Positions 21,192 to 64,000 are shown, counted from the stretch's first letter. The stretch: DNA of 64,000 bases from an uncultured Bacteroidota bacterium (GCA_902770735.1 CACXUB010000005.1:5639-69638); one strand, 5' to 3'. Translations and numbers: made by a program. The notes: generated from the sequence alone by a model not told the origin.

Positions 21192-21315
21192 TTTCTTTTG
21201 GACACGACACTTACGTTCAGAACAATATAAAATCAAAGTAAAATGCCGGGTGTGGAATTATCCAGACCTATGGGATTGTTGTCTCTTGTGAAATAGAACC
21301 AATCGATGTTTTTTG

Positions 21316-21323
21316 TACTTTTG
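21316..21323 (+). promoter_or_regulatory. -7 box TACTTTTG for the T9SS beta-helix protein
   Basis: Exact match, 22 nt upstream of ATG 21345. Confidence 0.65.
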
Positions 21324-21344
21324 CCGATAAAAAAGATTTTCGAT

Positions 21345-23078
21345 ATGAATAAATTGTTTTACGTTTTTGCATTTATTTTTGTTGTAAACCAATCAGTTGC
21401 ACAATGGGTGTCACCCGGAACCGGCCAGTCATACACGCTGGAAACCCTTTGCACCGCAGCCCCTTCCGCTGTGCAAAACACATCATCGAACCAATATGAC
21501 ATTTTGCAGAGTATTACCATCTCTGCCGGGGACACGCTGACGTTGGAGTCCACCGCCGAAATGGTGCATGTGTCTATCGGTGTGGTATGGACTGTTCGCG
21601 GGACGATGCGCACCGCTGACAGAACACAACCGCTTCTCATCCAAGGCGATTATTTTGAGGTTCGTTTCGAGGACGCCACCCAGAGTCGATTATCCCACCT
21701 TCATGTCCGCTATTGTCAAGGTATCAACTTGATTAACAGTGAAGTAGTGATTGACTCCTGCGAGTTCGACCACTTTTCCAACAATGTGATCAGCTATATG
21801 AACTGCAGTCCAACCATCCAGAACAGCTATTTTCACGACAACCAAACCTGTGCCATCCAGTCGGCCCTCAATTCTGACGGTTGTCCGGCCATTCTGAACA
21901 ATGTGTTGTATAACAATGTGTTGGCAAACACGAACAATCCGCAGATCAATATAGGTCCTGGTACCACGGACACCATCCGCATCATTGGAAACCTCATCGA
22001 GGGAGTGGCCAGCAACATGTCGGGCGGTATCGGCATCTCGAACATGTTTGGCTTTAGCCAATTGGTCACGCACGTGCTTGTGAAAGACAATGTGGTGAAA
22101 AACAATCGCTATGGTTATACGCAGAACGGGTCTTTGATTTCTTCGGAATTATTTGATAATCAGTTTATTGACAATAATTTGGAGGTCAATCCGAACAACG
22201 GTGGCAGTGGAGTGAGCATATACGGCAACACGACCTGTACGGCCAAGTTGCGCCGAAATCTCATCACCGGTAACCTTTGGGGTGTCACGGCCATCCAGGT
22301 CCCTCTTTTGGATATGGGCACGGCAGAGGATCCCGGTTACAATGTGCTGTACAACAACGGCAACGGAGGTGTTGAATATGAGTTGTATAACAATACCAGC
22401 AACTGTATAGATGCAATTGGTAACTATTGGGGCTGCGACAATGACGCGGCAGCGGAGGATGTGATTTTCCACTGGAACGACAATACGTCGTATGGCCTCG
22501 TCTATTTTCAGCCAATCAATGTGATAGAGCCTGAAATTCTCAGTTTTGCGTTTTTGGCGGAATACAATGAGTTTGCTTTCCCGCTTATGCCAATGGATTA
22601 TTACGGCACTTTTTCCGAAAATGGCGATTCCATTTTGGTGAATATGGCCGGACTTGCCCAATATGGCACCCAGTTGTTGCCCTCGATCACGTGTCCGATG
22701 GGTGTTTCCGTCACGCCGGCGCCTTTGGAACCTCAGAATTTTGTGGAGTCCTCCGTCGTCTATACGGCCACAACTCCCCACCAATCTTCCCGCAGCTATG
22801 TCGTTTGCGTTGACTTCACCTGCGACGTTCCCGACAATGTTTTAACGAAAATTAACCTTGTTCCGAATCCGGTCACGCAGGGATTTTTCATGCTGGACAA
22901 TCCGACAGAATCGGAGTTGGAATGGCGGATTTTCAGCACCAACGGTCAGTGTGTGATGCACGGGGATGCGCAACCGGGAACGAACCGTATCGCCGCGAAA
23001 ACGTTAACACCGGGAACATATCTTGTTTACATACAGAAAGGTAATTCGTTTGTTACCAAGAAGTTGATTATCCGGTAA
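21345..23078 (+). CDS. right-handed beta-helix repeat protein with T9SS C-terminal sorting domain
   Basis: Signal peptide MNKLFYVFAFIFVVNQSVAQ. Repeated N-rich beta-helix turns (NNVLYNNVLANTNN, VKDNVVKNNRYG). C-terminus LVPNPVTQGFFML...GTYLVYIQKGNSFVTKKLIIR is a Por_Secre_tail-type domain. Confidence 0.8.
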   Translation: MNKLFYVFAFIFVVNQSVAQWVSPGTGQSYTLETLCTAAPSAVQNTSSNQYDILQSITISAGDTLTLESTAEMVHVSIGVVWTVRGTMRTADRTQPLLIQGDYFEVRFEDATQSRLSHLHVRYCQGINLINSEVVIDSCEFDHFSNNVISYMNCSPTIQNSYFHDNQTCAIQSALNSDGCPAILNNVLYNNVLANTNNPQINIGPGTTDTIRIIGNLIEGVASNMSGGIGISNMFGFSQLVTHVLVKDNVVKNNRYGYTQNGSLISSELFDNQFIDNNLEVNPNNGGSGVSIYGNTTCTAKLRRNLITGNLWGVTAIQVPLLDMGTAEDPGYNVLYNNGNGGVEYELYNNTSNCIDAIGNYWGCDNDAAAEDVIFHWNDNTSYGLVYFQPINVIEPEILSFAFLAEYNEFAFPLMPMDYYGTFSENGDSILVNMAGLAQYGTQLLPSITCPMGVSVTPAPLEPQNFVESSVVYTATTPHQSSRSYVVCVDFTCDVPDNVLTKINLVPNPVTQGFFMLDNPTESELEWRIFSTNGQCVMHGDAQPGTNRIAAKTLTPGTYLVYIQKGNSFVTKKLIIR

Positions 23079-23139: not shown

Positions 23140-25272
23140 ATGAATATGAAGAAAGTATTCGTCAGTATCATAACCGTGGTCATCGCCTTTTGTGCGGTGG
23201 CGCAACAAGATTTCCGCGATCCGAGCCTCTCGATTGACGAGCGGGCGCAATTGCTTCTGAACCAGTTGACTTTGGAAGAGAAACTGGGGATGATGGAGCA
23301 TCAGAACCCAGCCGTTGAGCGGTTGGGCATTCCAGCCTACAGCTGGTGGAACGAGGCGTTGCACGGGGTTGCGCGCAACGGTTATGCCACGGTCTATCCG
23401 ATGCCTATCGCGCTGGCCGCCACTTTCGACGACAAGGCGGTGCAGGAGATGTTCGGCATGGTGGCTGACGAAGCGCGGATGAAGTATTACCGCGCACAGC
23501 AGGCCGGTCAGTACGGCGACTATACGGGGCTCACCTTCTTCACCCCGAACATCAACATTTTCCGCGACCCGCGATGGGGCAGGGGCATGGAGACTTACGG
23601 CGAGGATCCGTACCTTACCGGGCGCATGGGGGCTGCCTGTGTGAACGGTTTGCAGCAGAAGTCCAACGGCCGCTACAAGTCGCTCGCCTGCATCAAGCAC
23701 TTTGCCGTGCACAGCGGACCCGAGGCCGATCGCCATTCGTTCGATGCCACTGTCAGCGGCCGTGCATTCTGGACCACCTATCTGCCTGCGTTCAAGTACG
23801 TTGTGGATCATTCGGACGTGAGTATGGTGATGTGCGGTTACAACCGTCTGAACGGGGTGCCGTGCTGTACCAACGAGAGTCTGTTGGTGCAGATCCTCCG
23901 CGACCAATGGGGTTATGACGGGTTGTTCGTCACCGATTGCTGGGCGCTGAACGACTGTTGGGAGCGCGACAAGGTGATTCCGCGGCACGAGACACACGCG
24001 ACCGCTTCCGATGCCGCCGCCGCCGCGTTCGGTTCCGTCATCGATTTGGAGTGCGGCAGCGGCCTCAACGCACTGAAAGAGGCGTATTATAAGGGGATGA
24101 TTCCGAAGGATATTATTGACAACCATGTACTTAAGATTCTCAAAGCGCGCTTGGCTTTGGGAATGTTCGATCCGCAACAGCCGTTCTGGAAGCTGCCGGA
24201 TACGGCTACTTTTGATAAGATGGCTCTCAAAATGGCGCAAAAGAGCATCGTGCTGTTGCAAAACCGGAATGAAATTCTGCCGTTGCAGCCTGAAAAATAC
24301 AAAAGGATCGCTATTGTGGGACCCAATGCGGCGGATTCGGTTATGCTGTGCGGCAATTACAACGGGACTCCGCGCCACGCGGTGACCATCTACGAAGGTA
24401 TCGTCAACTATATCAACACGTTGCCGGCAAAAGAACGGCCCCAAATCTATTTCGACACGGCGTGCCATCACGTGGACGGCAAGTATCGTCCGCCCCGTGA
24501 CTTTGACAAGCAGATTGCGAAGTGCGACCTGGTGATTTTCGTCGGCGGGCTTTCTCCCGAATTGGAGGGCGAGGAGTTGAAGGTGGAGATGGACGGTTTC
24601 CACGGCGGGGACAGAACCACGATTGACTTGCCTCGGATTCAGGAGGGTATGTTGATGAAAATCAAGAAGATGGGTAAACCGGTGGTGTTTGTGCTTTGTT
24701 CTGGCGGCGCGGTGGCCGTGGACTGGGAGGATCAGAATTTGGATGCGGTGTTAGCAGGCTGGTACGGCGGTCAGGCGGCGGGCACGGCCATGGCGGATGT
24801 GCTTTTCGGCAAGATCAACCCCAGCGGCAAGCTGCCCGTGACCTTCTACAGCTCCAGCAACGAGCTTCCGCCGTTCGACAGTTACGAGATGGAGAACCGC
24901 ACTTACCGTTTTATGACGGAAAAACCGCTATATCCTTTCGGATACGGGCTGAGTTACACGCAATTTGAGTATGAAAACGCCAAATATGACCCGGCAGGTC
25001 GCGTTTTCACCTGCAAAATCAATAATGTCGGAAAGTACAATGGCGAGGAAGTGGCACAGCTCTATATGACTAACAAGGATGACAAGCAGGGGCCGGTGAA
25101 GACGTTGGTGGGTTTCAAGCGCGTGTTTGTCCCTGCGGGGAAAAGCGTAACCGTCTCCTTTCAAGTGGATGACGAGTTTTTCCAGACATTTTCGGACGAG
25201 CGTCAGCATTTCGAAATCCATCCGGGCCATTTTGTGTTTTACTACGGGGATAAAGTGATGGAGGTGAAGTAA
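23140..25272 (+). CDS. glycoside hydrolase family 3 (beta-glucosidase/beta-xylosidase type)
   Basis: LTLEEKLGMM, GIPAYSWWNEALHGV, GEDPYLTGRMG, KHFAVHSGPE and VTDCWAL (nucleophile Asp context). Three-domain length of ~710 aa. Confidence 0.9.
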   Translation: MNMKKVFVSIITVVIAFCAVAQQDFRDPSLSIDERAQLLLNQLTLEEKLGMMEHQNPAVERLGIPAYSWWNEALHGVARNGYATVYPMPIALAATFDDKAVQEMFGMVADEARMKYYRAQQAGQYGDYTGLTFFTPNINIFRDPRWGRGMETYGEDPYLTGRMGAACVNGLQQKSNGRYKSLACIKHFAVHSGPEADRHSFDATVSGRAFWTTYLPAFKYVVDHSDVSMVMCGYNRLNGVPCCTNESLLVQILRDQWGYDGLFVTDCWALNDCWERDKVIPRHETHATASDAAAAAFGSVIDLECGSGLNALKEAYYKGMIPKDIIDNHVLKILKARLALGMFDPQQPFWKLPDTATFDKMALKMAQKSIVLLQNRNEILPLQPEKYKRIAIVGPNAADSVMLCGNYNGTPRHAVTIYEGIVNYINTLPAKERPQIYFDTACHHVDGKYRPPRDFDKQIAKCDLVIFVGGLSPELEGEELKVEMDGFHGGDRTTIDLPRIQEGMLMKIKKMGKPVVFVLCSGGAVAVDWEDQNLDAVLAGWYGGQAAGTAMADVLFGKINPSGKLPVTFYSSSNELPPFDSYEMENRTYRFMTEKPLYPFGYGLSYTQFEYENAKYDPAGRVFTCKINNVGKYNGEEVAQLYMTNKDDKQGPVKTLVGFKRVFVPAGKSVTVSFQVDDEFFQTFSDERQHFEIHPGHFVFYYGDKVMEVK

Positions 25273-49634: not shown

Positions 49635-50933
49635 TTATTTCACAACCACTTTGGTGGTGGTGACTTTGCCGTTCTGGTTCACTTTGAGCATATAGACGCC
49701 GCTGTGGAGGTTGGAGACGTTCACTTGAGCGCTGCCAGTGATGGTTTCGTTATAAACCTGTTGACCGACAAGGTTGAAGAGCTGGATGTTAGCCTTCTCG
49801 TCGTTGCCAAGGTCCACCGTGAATTTGTTGGTGGCAGGGTTCGGATAAACAGTGAGGTTGTTCTTTTCGATTTCAGGAACATTGACGACACCGCAGTCGT
49901 TGCAGGTCACGCGCAGGCTGATATCCGGTTTCGGGTTGCTGCTCCAGAAGATGTTGGGTTGGTAAAGGTTATACCAAGCGCTGCTGGTAATGAAGTTGTC
50001 GGCATCGTGGAAAAGACCTTGTTGATAGTCTTCAAGGAGCTCGTCGGAGCCGGTGGTGGAATAACCGTCGCGGGGTTCGCCATACAGAGCGGTTCTGAAA
50101 GCGCTAAGATCAGTGCCAATGATTGAATTGGGGGTTCTGGCGCATCCGGGGATGAAGGTGACGGTCACGACAAGTTGTTTGGAAGAGAGGTTGGAGAGGC
50201 CGGCGGGGGTGGGTAAGGTCAAATAGTAGAAATCCTCACCGGTGTCGTCGTCAGCCGTCAACGGAATCCTGTCGATAATGATAGTGGAGGATTCAAGGGT
50301 GTTGGTGAGACCAGTAGAGGTCGCGCTGGTTGTGCTGGGGACGAAAGCGTTGTGGTCGAAAGGAATCAGAGGCAGGGCAAAGGCAGCCTGAAATTCACCC
50401 TGATCGTTATAGCTGCCAAGGTATCTGACATCATCTTCGTCAAAACCGATGACATAGGCGATGGCAAGGGTGTCAACCACATCAGCAGCCACATTCGTGC
50501 CGCGCACATAGTTGTAAGGCATCTGAATGGAGTCAACTGAATAGGTGTTGGCACTGGGCATGAAAGGCACATTTGACGGGGCACCGGTGTAGTTGTAGAT
50601 GTCACCCCATGAAGAATGTGACCAGTCGTATATTTGGCCTACTGAATTGAATTGCACGTGTGAATTGCCGTCAGTGAATGAATACAGGCCAAGGGTGTCG
50701 CATTGGATGGGAGGGGCAAAACCGCTGGGCTCAGAACCATAGTAGTCACAAGCATCCACAATCAAGTTGAACCAGAAAGAATTAGCGGCTTTCTGGGGAT
50801 TGGCTTTGGCGGGAGAACCCTTGATGGTGAAAGTAGTACCATCTGTCTTCACAACCTTCTTGGTTGTGGAAATCTGCGCGAAACTGACGGAAACGATCAG
50901 CAAGGCAGCCAATAACATGTAAAACTTTTTCAT
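49635..50933 (-). CDS. T9SS C-terminal-sorting-domain protein (unknown passenger)
   Basis: Signal peptide. C-terminus LTVYPNPATNKFTVDL...NLHSGVYMLKVNQNGKVTTTKVVVK is a Por_Secre_tail-type domain. Confidence 0.8.
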   Translation of the reverse strand: MKKFYMLLAALLIVSVSFAQISTTKKVVKTDGTTFTIKGSPAKANPQKAANSFWFNLIVDACDYYGSEPSGFAPPIQCDTLGLYSFTDGNSHVQFNSVGQIYDWSHSSWGDIYNYTGAPSNVPFMPSANTYSVDSIQMPYNYVRGTNVAADVVDTLAIAYVIGFDEDDVRYLGSYNDQGEFQAAFALPLIPFDHNAFVPSTTSATSTGLTNTLESSTIIIDRIPLTADDDTGEDFYYLTLPTPAGLSNLSSKQLVVTVTFIPGCARTPNSIIGTDLSAFRTALYGEPRDGYSTTGSDELLEDYQQGLFHDADNFITSSAWYNLYQPNIFWSSNPKPDISLRVTCNDCGVVNVPEIEKNNLTVYPNPATNKFTVDLGNDEKANIQLFNLVGQQVYNETITGSAQVNVSNLHSGVYMLKVNQNGKVTTTKVVVK

Positions 50934-56383: not shown

Positions 56384-56818
56384 TTCCTCCCAGTCAGCGT
56401 AGGAGGTGTCGGTTTCCCGCAAGCGGATTCGGGTAAGTTTCACTCTTTCAGAAAGTTTCGCTTTAAGTTTATCGGCGATAAAGTTCAGGAGATTTTCGGT
56501 GGTCGGTTGGAAGTCCACGATGACGATTTTCTCGTAATTTTGTTTCAACGCTTCGACAAGCTTTGCGTCGGTTTTGGCATTCAGCACCAAAGCGTGATCT
56601 AGCAAGGATATAATTTCCTCATTGACAAGCCGTTTCAAATCCCCGAAGTCCATCACCATACCGTTTTTGGGAGAAGACTCATCATGGAGCGGCTGGCCGG
56701 CGAGGGTGATGTCCATCTTGTAGGAATGGCCGTGGATGTTGCGGCACAGGCCGTCGTAGTTGCGCAGGGCATGTGCCATCTCGAAGGAGAATTGTTTTGT
56801 TATCTTGATGATACTCAT
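56381..56818 (-). CDS. queD: 6-carboxy-5,6,7,8-tetrahydropterin synthase
   Basis: FSFEMAHAL...CRNIHGHSY...MVMDFGDLK, typical of the PTPS/QueD family. 145 aa. Confidence 0.88.
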   Translation of the reverse strand: MSIIKITKQFSFEMAHALRNYDGLCRNIHGHSYKMDITLAGQPLHDESSPKNGMVMDFGDLKRLVNEEIISLLDHALVLNAKTDAKLVEALKQNYEKIVIVDFQPTTENLLNFIADKLKAKLSERVKLTRIRLRETDTSYADWEE

Positions 56819-57951
56819 TGTTTTACGAATTTATATGTTTGAATGTTATGCTCTGAAGAGACCTTTATCAGATATAATCCATTGGCTAAAGAGGAGATGT
56901 CCAGGGTGATGAGGTCAGAATCCTTGCTTTTAGCCGAAAAAAGAAGTTTTCCGGTTGAATCCATTACCTCAACGGTTGTTTGAAATATCTTAAAATCAGC
57001 GGATTGTATGTTGATGATGTCATTCGACGGATTGGGGAAGATGTTTATGGGCGTTGGGAATAGATGTTCTGATATGGAGACGTGGAAGGTGCTGTTGGTG
57101 TCGCTTCCGAAGATTTTCTCCGCGAGGTCGGGAAAGTCGATGAAGGGGTTCCGGTTGTGTTGGAGTTGATAGACGGCGTTGTTGCGGCTGATTTCTTTCT
57201 GGCTCACAGGGTCTTGAGCCGCCCATTGGAGCAGCAGTTGTTTCGCCCACGGCTTGAGGTTGCCCCCGCTGAAGTTGGATTGGGTCTCCACGCCGAGGTT
57301 TTTGTCCATGTAGCAGACCGCCATGTAGAAGTAGGCGCGGGCGAAATCGCCTTTGAAATCGTCGATGGGCTCGAACACTTGGCCGGAGTAGCCGGAGATG
57401 TTGGAGGTGCCCACTTTGCTGCCGTTGGTGCTGGTCCAGGTCGCGTTGGTCACCTTGCCGAAGGGCAGGTTGCTGCGTTTGGAGTTGACATAGCCGTCGG
57501 TGGGGATGAGGTGGAAGAGGTCGGTGTACATCGGGGCCACGCTGCCGCCGAACCAGCTTTTGGGCACGGAATGCTCTCGGTTGTAGCAGTCGCCTTCACC
57601 GGAGTAGCTGCCGCACTGGTCACTGCCGAAGGTGAAGTAGTAAGCCGGGGTTCCGCTGGGGCGGTCGGAGTACATGTCCCACACTTTGCCGTTGTCCGGT
57701 CGTTTGTCGGTGGTGGTGAAGGCATTCCACAAATTGTTGTAAGACAGCGTAGTATGGTTCTTGATGATGTTATGCATGGCTACCCGAAGGGCGTATCCGC
57801 TTTTGTTTTCCGCCGCGGCGTAGTAGCCTGCGGGGATTTGGGCGAAGGAAACGGTCGCGGCAAACAAGCAAAGCAGCAGAAGTGCCCTTTGCAGAGAGGA
57901 TATGCACATCGTCTCTTTGGCAGAAAATGGTATGTTTTTCATCTTATGCAT
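56815..57951 (-). CDS. endonuclease I family extracellular nuclease with T9SS C-terminal sorting domain
   Basis: YNREHSVPKSWF, DLFHLIPTDGYVNSKRSN, FEPIDDFKGDFARAYFYM. C-terminus NIFPNPSNDIINIQ...GLYLIKVSSEHNIQTYKFVKQ. Confidence 0.85.
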   Translation of the reverse strand: MHKMKNIPFSAKETMCISSLQRALLLLCLFAATVSFAQIPAGYYAAAENKSGYALRVAMHNIIKNHTTLSYNNLWNAFTTTDKRPDNGKVWDMYSDRPSGTPAYYFTFGSDQCGSYSGEGDCYNREHSVPKSWFGGSVAPMYTDLFHLIPTDGYVNSKRSNLPFGKVTNATWTSTNGSKVGTSNISGYSGQVFEPIDDFKGDFARAYFYMAVCYMDKNLGVETQSNFSGGNLKPWAKQLLLQWAAQDPVSQKEISRNNAVYQLQHNRNPFIDFPDLAEKIFGSDTNSTFHVSISEHLFPTPINIFPNPSNDIINIQSADFKIFQTTVEVMDSTGKLLFSAKSKDSDLITLDISSLANGLYLIKVSSEHNIQTYKFVKQ

Positions 57952-60142: not shown

Positions 60143-60577
60143 TTACATCAGCACGATGCATGCAATCTGCCACCTGTCGGGAATGAAATCGAAGTAATAG
60201 ACGGGGGTGCCCCAACGGTCTTTTTGGCGGAGCGTTTGTCCGTCGAGGTAGAAGAGCGGGGTGCCCCAGCGGTCTTTCTGCCGGATGGTCTGTCCGTCGA
60301 AATAAATCAACGGATCCCCCCAACGGTCTTTCATCCTGACCGTTTGCCCGTCAATGTAGAGCAGGGGTTGTCCCCAGCGGTCTTTCTGTCGCACCTGTTG
60401 GGTGGCTTCGTCGTACCAGAGCAGCTGCTCGCCCCATTTGTCTTTCTGGCGGATGGTGTTTTCCGTCATGTAGTAGAGTTTGGTGCCCCAACGGTCTTTC
60501 TGATAGACGGTTTGGGCGTGACCCGCAACGGTGAGGCATACCGTAATCAAGCAGAGTATGGCGATTTGTTTCATCAT
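60143..60577 (-). CDS. secreted tandem-repeat protein (seven ~20-aa DRWG repeats)
   Basis: Signal peptide MMKQIAILCLITVCLTVAGHAQ, followed by the repeated unit (D)GQT(I/V/L)RQKDRWG(T/D/Q)PL(L/I/F)Y. The -7 box lies only 5 nt from ATG 60577. Confidence 0.7.
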   Translation of the reverse strand: MMKQIAILCLITVCLTVAGHAQTVYQKDRWGTKLYYMTENTIRQKDKWGEQLLWYDEATQQVRQKDRWGQPLLYIDGQTVRMKDRWGDPLIYFDGQTIRQKDRWGTPLFYLDGQTLRQKDRWGTPVYYFDFIPDRWQIACIVLM

Positions 60578-60622: not shown

Positions 60623-62101
60623 TTATCGGCTTACAATTCTTCGTGTCACGGAGCCTTCCTTCATCTCGCAGACAATGAGGAACACGCCACGACCGGGCAG
60701 TGTCAGCTCAATGGTCTCCGTTTCCGGCTTGATTTCCTGCAACAGGGCGCCATCTATCGAGAAAAGCCTCATCATGCTGGGGATTTCGCGATCGAAATGC
60801 ACCGTGCATTGTCTTTGCGCCGGGTTGGGATAGATCAGCAACCGGTCGTTCGTGAAGGTTTGTATTCCGGTGCTGTCCACGGGATCGATGGGCGGGGCGG
60901 GCGGCACGAGCGTGTCGGTGTGGAACGACATCATAGCCCATTCGCCGAAGAGGTCTGTGTCGCACACGCAGCGCACATAGACGTCGTAGTGGGTGTCGGG
61001 CTGCAGGTCGGAAATGTGCAGGAAGCTCTCGGTGATGCCGACAGTTGTGCCGGTGCCTTGAGAGAAACCTTGCACGCCGTATTCCGCCTCGAAGTGGTCG
61101 GGTTCGCCCTCAAAAGACCAACCTATCGTGGCGGCCATGGTGTCCACTTCGATGAGGTGCAGGTTGAAGACGGCGCTGCAGGTGTCTTCGGGGATGGTCG
61201 GTTGTTGCGCCCAGAGCTGCAGATTGTCGAGATAGAGGGCGGAGCCTTGCTGCGGGTAGGGATTGGCGGACGAGAGAAGGAGTATGACGATGGAATCGGC
61301 CTCCACGTAAGGGTAGGCGGGGTTTATTTCGGAAATGGGAGAATAGGCTATTTCGAACGGGGTATAGTCGGTAGTGTCGGTCAGGGCCGTGGTGAACCCC
61401 GCGCCCACCACTTCGCGACGGTGCGTCACAGTGTTGTATTTGGTGCCGAGCAGCACCACACAACCATTGTCCCCGCCGACGGCCGAGGTGTATTTGTAAG
61501 AGCCGGTCAGCCTCTCGGGCACAGCACCCTCCAATGCGACACCTCCGTCGATGATCGTGTTGATGTCCACATTCGCGAAGACGGAAATCAGCTGATTCAT
61601 GTTGCCGAGGTGGGTGACGATAATGTCCATCATGGGCAACAGCTGGTCGATGTCAATCACGCCGGTGGAAAGGACGGTGGGGAAGACGGTGGTGGTCAGC
61701 ATGGGGTCCAGCGAGGACGAGGCGAGACTATAGACCGTGGAGCTGATGATGTCGGAGAGCATGAAACTCTGCAATTTGAGCGCGTGGCCGCCTTCCGGGA
61801 CCCCGCTGGTCTCGTTGGAGACTTTCAGCAGCGGGAGATCGGTGTTCACATTCACGTTTATGCCACTGTACGTGATGCTTTCATTCACCGGATAGGTCGG
61901 ATAGTCCCATCCTGTGGGATAGGGGTAGCTGCTATAGACAGACAAGGGGAAGAAGAGGACGGTGACGCTGTAGCCACTGCCGGTGGACCACTCTTCGAAA
62001 CTGGGGTTCGGAATGGCGATGGTGCTGTCTTGGGTTTGGGCTGTGGAGTTCAGCGAGAGAAGCATACAAAATGCCAACAGTAAAACGGAAATGTGTTTCA
62101 T
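60623..62101 (-). CDS. T9SS C-terminal-sorting-domain protein with fibronectin-III-like module
   Basis: Start set to MKHISVLLLAFCMLLSLNSTAQ (ATG 62101). FN3-like IGWSFEGEPDHFEAEYGVQGF...HYDVYVRCVC. C-terminus LLIYPNPAQRQCTVHF...GVFLIVCEMKEGSVTRRIV. Confidence 0.8.
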   Translation of the reverse strand: MKHISVLLLAFCMLLSLNSTAQTQDSTIAIPNPSFEEWSTGSGYSVTVLFFPLSVYSSYPYPTGWDYPTYPVNESITYSGINVNVNTDLPLLKVSNETSGVPEGGHALKLQSFMLSDIISSTVYSLASSSLDPMLTTTVFPTVLSTGVIDIDQLLPMMDIIVTHLGNMNQLISVFANVDINTIIDGGVALEGAVPERLTGSYKYTSAVGGDNGCVVLLGTKYNTVTHRREVVGAGFTTALTDTTDYTPFEIAYSPISEINPAYPYVEADSIVILLLSSANPYPQQGSALYLDNLQLWAQQPTIPEDTCSAVFNLHLIEVDTMAATIGWSFEGEPDHFEAEYGVQGFSQGTGTTVGITESFLHISDLQPDTHYDVYVRCVCDTDLFGEWAMMSFHTDTLVPPAPPIDPVDSTGIQTFTNDRLLIYPNPAQRQCTVHFDREIPSMMRLFSIDGALLQEIKPETETIELTLPGRGVFLIVCEMKEGSVTRRIVSR

Positions 62102-62122
62102 TTTTATTAGTTTTTGAAAATG

Positions 62123-62130
62123 CAAAAATA
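62123..62130 (-). promoter_or_regulatory. -7 box TATTTTTG for T9SS FN3 protein 60623..62101
   Basis: Exact match on the minus strand, 22 nt upstream of ATG 62101. Confidence 0.65.
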
Positions 62131-62139
62131 AAAAAAAAC

Positions 62140-62185
62140 ACAAACAGCAAAACAAAAAAACGCCGCACTCTTGCGAATGCGGCGT
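62140..62185 (-). terminator. intrinsic terminator after hsp20
   Basis: ACGCCGCA(62160-62167)/TGCGGCGT(62178-62185) perfect 8-bp stem. On the minus strand it is followed by a U-rich run (plus-strand A-run 62140-62160). Confidence 0.7.
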
Positions 62186-62210
62186 GAAATCATTGGCTTT
62201 GATTGAAAAA

Positions 62211-62636
62211 TTACCCGATGGCGATGGTGCGGGCGATTTTGGGCTCCTCTTTCTGCACTCTCGGCAGGATGATGGTGAGGATTCCGTGCTCCACTTTGGC
62301 TTCGATGTGGTCTTTGTCCACGTCCTCGGGCAGGGTGTAGTTCTGCTCGTAGTTCGTGTAGGAGAACTCGCGGCGCAGATAGTGGTGCTTTTTCTCCTCT
62401 TCCTTGTGTTCCATCTTGTTCTCGATGGCGACGCAGAGGTTGCCTTCGTCGTTGATGCTCACGCGGCAGTATTCCTTCTTGATGCCGGGGGCGGCCACTT
62501 CCATCGTGTAGGCCTTTTCGTCTTCTCTAACATTCACGGCCGGAGCTGTGGTGTTGGTGCGCGGCATGATGTCGCTGTTCAAGAAATCTTCAAACATGGT
62601 CGGAAACCAACTGTTTTTAAACATTACTGGTAGCAT
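62211..62636 (-). CDS. Hsp20/alpha-crystallin family small heat-shock protein
   Basis: PAVNVREDEKAYTMEVAAPGIKKEY...REFSYTNYEQNYTLPEDVDKDHIEAKVEHGILTIILPR. Confidence 0.9.
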   Translation of the reverse strand: MLPVMFKNSWFPTMFEDFLNSDIMPRTNTTAPAVNVREDEKAYTMEVAAPGIKKEYCRVSINDEGNLCVAIENKMEHKEEEKKHHYLRREFSYTNYEQNYTLPEDVDKDHIEAKVEHGILTIILPRVQKEEPKIARTIAIG

Positions 62637-62724
62637 AATGAACTCCTTTCTTTTATTGTTAGACTTTTTATTGTTTTTTCTTTTTCTGTCGCCTCCGCTC
62701 TCGCATCGGCGACGCTACCTATAA

Positions 62725-62740
62725 TGCAAACCGCGTGCCA
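62725..62740 (-). promoter_or_regulatory. sigma-54 (RpoN) -24/-12 promoter TGGCACGCGGTTTGCA upstream of hsp20
   Basis: The minus strand reads TGGCACG-CGGT-TTGCA, a full match to the TGGCACG-N4-TTGCW consensus, ~90 nt upstream of ATG 62636. No TAnnTTTG box is present for this gene. Confidence 0.55.
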
Positions 62741-62772
62741 ACAAATTATTTTCAAATATTTTTATCTTTACT

Positions 62773-62814
62773 GACAAATTGTCCGTTTTTTGGGGACAAA
62801 TTGGCGGAATTTGT
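62773..62814 (-). promoter_or_regulatory. two palindromes upstream of the sigma-54 promoter (candidate enhancer-binding-protein sites)
   Basis: GACAA-A-TTGTC (62773-62783) and ACAAATT-GGCGG-AATTTGT (62796-62814), 33-75 bp upstream of the -24 element. Confidence 0.35.
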
Positions 62815-62872
62815 GCCAAAATTTCCATCATTTCTTTTTATTTGAGCTTTCCGGTCCAGGAGGCGTCGGCCC

Positions 62873-63430
62873 CTACACCATCATCGCCAAAAATGCAGTG
62901 GCGTCCCCCAAAATCTTTTTGTCAGTGGAATATTCCGTTTTCGACAATGTTTCCATGTTGTTTTTAATCAGCATACACGCTGTATTATACAAGTCTTTGT
63001 GTTGTTCCCAGAAATCAGCATTTATTTGTAAAACGGCATTAAGCAGATCGCCTTCGTAAAAACCTCCGTCCGCTTTGATGTCGAACTGAAGGATTTCGAA
63101 CACTTTTGGCAGGATGATGTCCAATGCTGTCTCTTGTCCAACTAAATATCGGTAGTCTTCCACCGTCCAGCGTCGGGCTGGCGTGTGGAACAGGTAATAC
63201 ATGTGCTGGACGACGGAAGAATCATCGTATGGGATTTCGTCTCGCCACTCACAATGAAGCAGGTCGGAAAGCGTTTGGGAGAAAAAGTTGCGGTCCTCTT
63301 TCAGAATGCGCTGAACGTATTCGATGTCGGCATCAGTCACCTCGGAACGTCCAATAGGGACAGGAGATTTGGTTCGCTCGGCGTGAATCTCTTCCGTGAC
63401 GTATCGAGGTGTCTTCTTTAGCTTTTTCAT
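62873..63430 (-). CDS. contact-dependent-growth-inhibition-type immunity protein-like (CdiI_2-like), N-terminally extended
   Basis: C-terminal part EDYRYLVGQETALDIILPKVFEILQFDIKADGGFYEGDLLNAVLQINADFWEQH matches the pattern I remember for this immunity family (EDLR-x-LIGQ...AEGDYYEGDLL-x-VL...W). Confidence 0.55.
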   Translation of the reverse strand: MKKLKKTPRYVTEEIHAERTKSPVPIGRSEVTDADIEYVQRILKEDRNFFSQTLSDLLHCEWRDEIPYDDSSVVQHMYYLFHTPARRWTVEDYRYLVGQETALDIILPKVFEILQFDIKADGGFYEGDLLNAVLQINADFWEQHKDLYNTACMLIKNNMETLSKTEYSTDKKILGDATAFLAMMV

Positions 63431-63445
63431 ATTTTGGATTGCAAT

Positions 63446-63838
63446 TTACTTTTTTTCTATGCACAAAATATTAAAAGTTTGTGGCTGGTCAAAGCAATTA
63501 TGATAATTCCCGCTCAATGCTACATTTACATTTTGTAAATTGTATTTCTTGAACGTGTTGCGAACACCTGCAATTAGATAACATAAATCGCCATTGTAAG
63601 GGTTGATGTCCTTATTTAACGCCTTTTCTATTTCTTCTTGAGAAGGATTCCCTGGCAAAATTAAAGCGGGGACTTTATATTGACTAACACCACCAAGAAT
63701 AAGGGGATCATCATAAATTATTAAAACACCAGAAAGATTGATGGATTTTTCAATACAATCACATTTATTGTGTTTGGTACAGCCTACTTGGAATAGCAGG
63801 AGTGTAAAAAGGGCGATGCTGAAAACTATCTTTCTCAT
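63446..63838 (-). CDS. hypothetical small lipoprotein (AT-rich gene)
   Basis: Start set to MRKIVFSIALFTLLLFQVGC (lipobox; ATG 63838, 30 nt after the -7 box). The track N-terminus overlaps the promoter. Confidence 0.55.
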   Translation of the reverse strand: MRKIVFSIALFTLLLFQVGCTKHNKCDCIEKSINLSGVLIIYDDPLILGGVSQYKVPALILPGNPSQEEIEKALNKDINPYNGDLCYLIAGVRNTFKKYNLQNVNVALSGNYHNCFDQPQTFNILCIEKK

Positions 63839-63867
63839 AACTTGTTTGCTATAAATTATTAACGCTG

Positions 63868-63875
63868 CAAAGATA
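63868..63875 (-). promoter_or_regulatory. -7 box TATCTTTG for the lipoprotein/immunity-like gene pair
   Basis: Exact match on the minus strand, 30 nt upstream of ATG 63838. Confidence 0.6.
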
Positions 63876-64000
63876 CGCTTTTTTTCAGCAAATAGCAAGG
63901 TTGTGGAATTTTTCCATCCTCTCTTTATACTTTAGGCGATAAATTATCCCGAAAATGCGCTACCGAAACTGTTCAGTTAACTATACGATATGAGAATTTA

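Follow-up and report, generated by a model that had tools for sequence, protein, structure and literature searches.

Stress-responsive activators of sigma-54 are known from the PspF/psp and Myxococcus HsfA/lonD systems, in which they act through upstream palindromes to drive genes for protein-quality or envelope stress. Sigma-54 also serves a small heat-shock gene in E. coli, where the ibpB promoter (said to have been described by Kuczynska-Wisnik et al. in 2001) is reportedly internal and secondary, and stands beside the sigma-32 promoter of ibpAB.

Within the Bacteroidota, 5'-end RNA-seq of Flavobacterium psychrophilum yielded the motif SM4, which has typical -24/-12 elements, and starts behind SM4 were mapped for groES-groEL, lon, dnaK, grpE-dnaJ, htpG, skp and clpB (PMC9723704). 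Mutation of conserved SM4 bases lowered activity at another promoter of the class, and the genome encodes one sigma-54 and three PF00158 proteins, with the cognate activators left open (PMC9723704). According to a 2025 in-silico survey, sigma-54 promoters are enriched in Planctomycetota, as well as in Flavobacteriia, Bacteroidia and Cytophagia, at the genes for GroEL, IbpA/Hsp20 (COG0071), GroES, GrpE, DnaJ and DnaK (PMC12316311). Sigma-54 control is thus the phylum's standard arrangement for chaperone genes. The original prediction for the locus analysed here had called RpoN-dependent control of a small heat-shock gene an unusual wiring for Bacteroidota; this is wrong, because sigma-54 chaperone control has already been published for the phylum, as mapped -24/-12 promoters in F. 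psychrophilum (PMC9723704) and as predictions that include COG0071 in the survey (PMC12316311). The B. thetaiotaomicron transcription start site paper does not mention sigma-54.

Compared with these systems, the hsp20 locus described here has, unlike E. coli ibpB, a sigma-54 promoter that is apparently the only one and that serves a whole chaperone regulon, while its putative activator sites differ from those of PspF/psp and HsfA/lonD in their sequence (GACAA-N-TTGTC) and in lying much closer to the promoter. It resembles the F. psychrophilum SM4 class in having a -24/-12 promoter before chaperone genes of the same phylum, with no activator assigned in either. It differs in belonging to an uncultured rumen Bacteroidales known from sequence alone, and it adds the palindrome with the phasing of its sites as well as the features of the hsp20 leader; hsp20 is not in the table selection of the F. 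psychrophilum study, the main text of which has no enhancer motif (PMC9723704). The survey is a statistical enrichment by COG that states that information on activator specificity is lacking for its organisms, and the passages of it used here contain no analysis of activator sites or leaders (PMC12316311). Our comparison indicates that sigma-54, and not a system of the sigma-32 or HrcA type, controls the chaperone genes of uncultured rumen Bacteroidales/Prevotellaceae. It contributes a putative 11-bp enhancer palindrome with phasing rules, which could be used as a bait or search motif for the phylum's heat-shock activator, together with a GNRA hairpin and a conserved Shine-Dalgarno sequence, both of them leader features specific to hsp20.

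The hsp20 control region and its promoter

The window is the whole 64,000-nucleotide stretch of DNA that was analysed, and all positions are counted from its first nucleotide. The hsp20 gene and its surroundings comprise the following features.

62160..62185, minus strand: intrinsic terminator 3' of hsp20, an 11-bp stem followed by a T run
62211..62636, minus strand: hsp20 coding sequence, 141 amino acids (Pfam HSP20, PF00011, E = 4.6e-21)
62637..62687, minus strand: A-rich unstructured leader, carrying the Shine-Dalgarno sequence AAGGAG
62688..62713, minus strand: 5'-terminal hairpin, GTCGCC-N14-GGCGAC, from folding, covariation and a covariance model
62714..62716, minus strand: predicted transcription start, 10-12 nt past the -12 C
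62725..62740, minus strand: sigma-54-type promoter with -24 TGGCAC and -12 TTGCA, TGGCACGCGGTTTGCA, from consensus match and conservation
62741..62772, minus strand: A+T-rich spacer from enhancer to promoter, AGTAAAGATAAAAATATTTGAAAATAATTTGT, conserved in the closest relatives only
62773..62783: putative proximal enhancer site, perfect palindrome GACAA-T-TTGTC, GACAATTTGTC, centre at about -64 from the predicted start, slot -37/-38 relative to the T of TGGCAC
62795..62805, minus strand: putative distal enhancer site, GCCAATTTGTC, centre at about -86, TTGTC at slot -59
62815..62825, minus strand: degenerate third enhancer slot, GAAATTTTGGC, 8/11 matches to GACAATTTGTC, centre at about -106
62873-63430, minus strand: gene for a CdiI_3-like immunity protein (by Pfam), upstream neighbour of hsp20 and unrelated to it

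The hsp20 ATG is at 62636, and the 236-bp intergenic region 5' of the gene holds the promoter in the same orientation. Because the upstream gene is unrelated and an intrinsic terminator lies downstream, hsp20 is a monocistronic unit. Beside the contact-dependent-inhibition immunity gene of the CdiI_3 type, no toxin gene was recognised in the window. Near hsp20, a small protein (60143-60577, minus strand) consists of about six RQKDRWG...Y.DG repeats and has no Pfam match, and several proteins of the window, including an Endonuclease I, end in a type IX secretion sorting domain (Por_Secre_tail; 21306-23078, 49635-50933 and 56815-57951), which confirms that the chromosome is that of a Bacteroidota.

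The promoter had been predicted as a perfect TGGCACG-N4-TTGCW element about 90 nt upstream of the Hsp20 ATG, at a gene lacking a TAnnTTTG box, and our analysis agrees on each of these points. The sequence TGGCACGCGGTTTGCA at 62740..62725 matches the consensus with 0 mismatches, its GG at -24 and GC at -12 are spaced exactly 10 bp apart, the -12 C (62726) lies 90 nt and the T of TGGCAC 104 nt upstream of the ATG, and no TAnnTTTG box occurs within 250 nt upstream of hsp20 in the window. A search for this sigma-A -7 box across 80 orthologous upstream regions gave only 2 matches, scattered and unaligned, and the HrcA/CIRCE operator TTAGCACTC-N9-GAGTGCTAA is absent from the window even when up to 3 mismatches are tolerated. 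Within the 64-kb window, TGGCACG-N4-TTGCW is matched perfectly once and never with a single mismatch. Other sigma-54-like matches, at 23389 and 2581 on the minus strand of the window, were judged to be chance occurrences, in a coding-like context with no gene start after them and no enhancer. Sigma-54 promoters keep a fixed distance from the -12 element to +1, and the start of transcription is therefore predicted at 62714-62716. The A+T-rich spacer upstream of the promoter may have an intrinsic bend or serve as a binding site for a nucleoid protein.

For comparison we used 79 hsp20 loci (L001-L079) from species-level rumen and gut MAGs of Bacteroidales, Prevotellaceae and Bacteroidaceae, with Hsp20 protein identities of 73-99%; these loci are phylogenetically related, so that the counts and shuffle statistics given here and below overstate independence. 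The element TGGCAC-N5-TTG is present upstream of hsp20 in all 79 loci, mostly about 95-105 nt from the ATG, with an N6 spacer or a longer leader in a few. Its four or five spacer bases vary by lineage (CGGT, CACC, CGCT, CCTT, TAAT and others), while the GG and TTG are invariant. A strict pattern, TGGCA[CT][GA]-N4-TTGC[AT], has 40 matches on both strands of 0.93 Mb, of which 38 are at hsp20 promoters (including that of a second paralogue in L010) and 2 are elsewhere. In its conservation the element bears the mark of a functional -24/-12 promoter, which is probably the sole promoter of hsp20.

Some genomes have two hsp20 paralogues, each with its own complete module of promoter, enhancer and hairpin (L010, at 6001 and about 11770; L001 and L013, from the same MAG). 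In L003, L006, L009, L011, L013, L023 and others, an extra TTGGCAC that lacks a -12 partner precedes the real -24 element by about 20 bp; the window has a TGGCAC at 62818-62813, within the degenerate third enhancer slot. The only other heat-shock gene in the flanks of hsp20 is one lon (L073), the upstream region of which is beyond the end of the locus.

Upstream palindromes and the shared chaperone module

Two palindromes upstream of the promoter had been proposed as binding sites for an enhancer-binding protein, and they fared differently. The proximal one, GACAATTTGTC at 62773-62783, appears from its conservation to be a real site of the kind expected for such a protein, and its slot, -37/-38, is the commonest for the palindrome among orthologues. 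The second, ACAAATT-CCGCC-AATTTGT (62814..62796), is present at its coordinates, but the palindrome is not kept in relatives, where only the right arm is conserved. Read as one ACAAATT-N5-AATTTGT site it is a mis-parse of an 11-bp site plus the degenerate third site, because only its right arm belongs to the conserved unit GCCAATTTGTC.

This unit was derived by aligning the orthologous loci anchored on TGGCAC, which gave an enhancer position matrix of G[A/C/T]CA[A/T][T/A]TTGTC[A/C], an 11-bp unit containing the imperfect palindrome GACAA-N-TTGTC. Counted from the T of TGGCAC, the TTGTC half begins in orthologues at -17/-18, -37/-38, -59 or -79/-80, neighbouring sites are usually spaced by 20-22 bp, and the conserved palindromes never overlap the -24/-12 element or +1. 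The slot at -59 is occupied in many orthologous loci; that at -79/-80 holds TTGTC in close relatives and TTGGC in the window. The pattern GNCAWWTTGTC has two sites only in the 64-kb window, both at hsp20. Compared with the sites of classical looping activators, the putative enhancer slots are unusually close to the promoter; in many members of the regulon they are centred at about -45 to -65 from +1. In the literature searched, we found no description of the enhancer motif or of a cognate activator in Bacteroidota, an absence that is no proof of novelty.

We then scanned metagenome contigs for GACAATTTGTC-N(8-38)-TGGCAC-N5-TTG and obtained at least 120 loci (L080-L199). As the scan pattern itself imposed a perfect palindrome and TGGCAC-N5-TTG, the proportions within the regulon are conditional on it: the first downstream ORF encodes GroES in at least 31 loci, DnaK in at least 22, Hsp20 in at least 19, HtpG in at least 8, ClpB in at least 7 and GrpE in at least 2, while at least 1 of the listed loci has a ClpB/ClpC-like ATPase, at least 19 are cut by the contig end and at least 11 have other genes. 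Pfam confirmed one representative of each of the six classes (Cpn10, HSP70, HSP90, ClpB domains, GrpE and HSP20). Because the scan returned groES, dnaK, htpG, clpB, grpE and hsp20, the hsp20 element can be placed in a sigma-54 heat-shock regulon, and as a sequence feature the module of enhancer and promoter robustly marks classical chaperone genes, hsp20 among them.

Among the matches listed, the palindrome is not spread evenly over the permitted 8-38 bp but concentrates at -17/-19, -27/-31 and -37/-41, positions that differ by about one helical turn, with a Rayleigh R of 0.76 at a period of 10.5 bp that was reached by 0 of 10,000 random sets. The -12 element, in 112 distinct promoters among these matches, is TTGC in 48, TTGA in 36 and TTGT in 27; in contrast to textbook sigma-54 promoters, the regulon does not conserve the C of the canonical -12 GC. 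The module also stands about 200 nt upstream of the gene for a conserved 71-aa protein, MQ[RQ]YAN.GGNSSIAGYEIEP..., which has no Pfam match and may be an additional regulon member (L134; L147, 3956-4171, minus strand; L192). At one locus (L110), a single instance, it precedes a transcription regulator with a WYL/WCX domain.

Proposed mechanism and alternative readings

Comparative evidence strongly supports the interpretation of the region as a sigma-54 promoter with enhancer sites. For the reading as a whole, that the hsp20 control region would combine a sigma-54 promoter with activator palindromes and belong to the phylum's heat-shock regulon, we consider the evidence good enough to call it likely. 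Of the original prediction's sigma-54 reading, the promoter, the proximal site, the hairpin and the lack of a sigma-A box are retained, and the unusual wiring and the second palindrome are not.

According to the proposed mechanism, sigma-54 (RpoN) RNA polymerase would bind the -24/-12 element at 62740-62725 and form a closed complex that does not open unaided. Dimers of an AAA+ enhancer-binding protein would bind GACAA-N-TTGTC at about -64 and -86, and at the degenerate site at about -106, sites that share a face of the helix; once protein-folding stress is sensed, ATP hydrolysis by the activator would open the promoter. Transcription would begin at about 62714-62716, so that the 5' end of the RNA would be a GNRA-capped hairpin, most likely protecting it from decay, and the hairpin would be followed by the A-rich unstructured leader with its Shine-Dalgarno sequence. 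The same enhancer and promoter module would drive groES, dnaK, htpG, clpB and grpE.

Pfam searches of 50 window ORFs and a signature scan of the window turned up neither rpoN nor a PF00158 gene, and GAFTGA, Walker-A and RpoN-box signatures are absent from the window, the 79 genome loci and the 120 metagenome loci among the matches listed. Three loose matches to the GAFTGA pattern are spurious, two of them in frames with stop codons. To our knowledge, Bacteroidales encode rpoN, and the presence of rpoN and PF00158 genes in this particular genome is presumed by analogy, from phylum-level knowledge and papers.

The palindromes might instead serve as operators for a heat-shock repressor resembling HrcA, HspR or CtsR, which would block the activator or the polymerase until stress titrates it away, with the sigma-54 activator acting from solution or from elsewhere. 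Palindromic operators are indeed used by most bacterial heat-shock regulons outside the sigma-32 type, TTGTC begins 17-19 bp upstream of TGGCAC in many members, which is closer than typical enhancers, and no activator gene is linked to the module. However, the sites never cover the -24/-12 element or +1, as set out above, and their alternative slots, one or two helical turns apart, are a signature of activation from one face of the helix; moreover, sigma-54 always requires an activator, so that adding a repressor is less parsimonious. We therefore regard repression through these palindromes as unlikely. Still less probable, in our estimate very improbable, is that TGGCAC-N5-TTG is read by another sigma factor or a DNA-binding regulator with a look-alike site. 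The varying -12 C across the regulon would fit such a reader, as would the fact that no rpoN was seen in the window, the 79 genome loci or the metagenome matches listed. Against it, fixed spacing with an invariant GG and TTG and a varying spacer is the signature of sigma-54, and the orthologous F. psychrophilum regulon has mapped starts behind the same motif, mutation of which in conserved bases cut activity at another promoter of the class (PMC9723704).

That the element is a functionless chance match to the consensus is hardly credible. The shortness of the pattern is the one point in its favour, whereas about 0.015 perfect matches are expected by chance in the 128,000 positions of the window (11 fixed bases and one W) and a single one was found, and the element is kept in 79 species-level genomes and at more than 100 metagenome chaperone loci. 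We rejected chance because the element is unique in the window and conserved in orthologues with a varying spacer. The sigma-54 promoter with activator sites is the preferred reading of the control region.

Leader hairpin and Shine-Dalgarno sequence of hsp20

A hairpin GTCGCC-N14-GGCGAC had been predicted directly at +1 (62713..62688), and it is present, conserved and covarying. Its folding energy is -16.2 kcal/mol (z = -4.1 versus shuffles). A 6-bp outer stem is followed by a tandem G.A/A.G and by a 3-bp inner stem that is capped with a GAGA (GNRA) tetraloop. The predicted start coincides with the first hairpin base, and orthologous leaders most often begin to pair 12-13 nt past the -12 C. 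RNAalifold recovered 3 pairs only from the raw MAFFT alignment, and the full structure was supplied by hand for the covariation test, in which, over 39 distinct leaders, 78% of cells pair versus 25-42% when the partners are slid by 1-3 columns. Double changes in the stems include GC<->AU (15 vs 8) and CG<->UA (17 vs 8), and in the inner stem CG<->UA (34 vs 3). As the stems covary, an RNA structure is favoured over a protein operator. The core sequence pattern has 52 matches in 1.8 Mb, and all 52 are directly behind an hsp20 sigma-54 promoter. A covariance model (R1) scores 51 bits at the hairpin and no more than 16 bits elsewhere in the window, and its strong matches (E < 1e-7) among the independent metagenome loci listed are hsp20 leaders only. 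Rfam families searched over 62000-64000 at E <= 10 gave nothing relevant.

The Shine-Dalgarno sequence, AAGGAG at 62648-62643 (minus strand), is 6 nt before the AUG; the centroid fold leaves both of them unpaired, about 45 nt downstream of the hairpin. The ROSE, fourU and Synechocystis hsp17 thermometers likewise are structured 5' UTRs on small heat-shock mRNAs, but here the Shine-Dalgarno sequence and AUG are unpaired and no Rfam family matches. A thermometer of the ROSE/fourU type, which sequesters the Shine-Dalgarno sequence, was rejected because the hairpin leaves both the Shine-Dalgarno sequence and the AUG untouched and has no Rfam match. Another known element is the ompA 5' hairpin, a stabilising stem-loop at the transcript's 5' terminus, far from the ribosome-binding site. 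The hsp20 hairpin is likewise stable, is predicted to lie no more than a few nucleotides from the 5' end and is remote from the ribosome-binding site; it differs from that of ompA in its conserved GNRA loop and tandem G.A, and its stabilising role is putative.

We prefer to read the hairpin as a stabiliser of the 5' end, which is its most likely role, while the conserved loop and G.A motif leave room for a specific protein- or ribosome-binding role that they may serve. An active regulatory RNA specific to hsp20, that is, a protein or ribosome site or a temperature-responsive element working with the Shine-Dalgarno sequence, is a possibility that we take seriously yet think doubtful. It would explain why sequence is kept beyond pairing (the GNRA loop, the tandem G.A and a GAGGC in the 3' arm), why the motif is restricted to hsp20 leaders in both the pattern and the R1 searches and is missing from the groES, dnaK, htpG and clpB leaders of the regulon, and why hsp20 is the only regulon member with a Shine-Dalgarno sequence. 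It is at odds with the distance to an unsequestered Shine-Dalgarno sequence and AUG, with a stem of -16 kcal/mol that would not melt at physiological heat-shock temperatures, with the lack of an Rfam family match, and with distant orthologues that use hairpins of other sequence, as a generic stabiliser would predict.

A strong and well-spaced AGGAG/GGAGG is present at hsp20 in 79 of 80 genome loci and in 15 of 18 metagenome hsp20 loci among the matches listed; the background, from 877 long ORFs called crudely in the same loci, is 4.7%. In other regulon members among these matches it is found in 0 of 27 groES, 0 of 21 dnaK and 0 of 7 htpG genes. The ribosomes of Bacteroidia reportedly ignore Shine-Dalgarno sequences, and two of the papers on this make no mention of hsp20 in their main texts (PMC9976891, PMC13000453). 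The conserved Shine-Dalgarno sequence of hsp20 is thus unexpected in Bacteroidia and may be the most interesting observation made here, as it bears on when Bacteroidia ribosomes use their anti-Shine-Dalgarno. Speculatively, hsp20 could be singled out, in a class whose ribosomes normally keep the anti-Shine-Dalgarno hidden, for a second, translational control through its Shine-Dalgarno sequence and sequence-conserved hairpin, if stress ribosomes with an exposed anti-Shine-Dalgarno (for example, those without bS21) preferred hsp20; separately, the activator of the regulon could be an undescribed stress-sensing enhancer-binding protein acting at the promoter-proximal, helically phased GACAA-N-TTGTC. 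We offer this proposal as a long shot.

Many hsp20, groES and dnaK leaders also have an A/T-rich motif, [GA]T[CT]TAAC[AC]A..AAAA or TTTAAAA, 15-30 nt before the start codon, with a copy in the window at, for example, 62652-62664; it may merely reflect the A-rich initiation region typical of Bacteroidia. At one locus (L064), the hsp20 leader is lengthened by tandem AAACGATTAAACTATT-like units, which place the promoter about 154 nt from the ATG.
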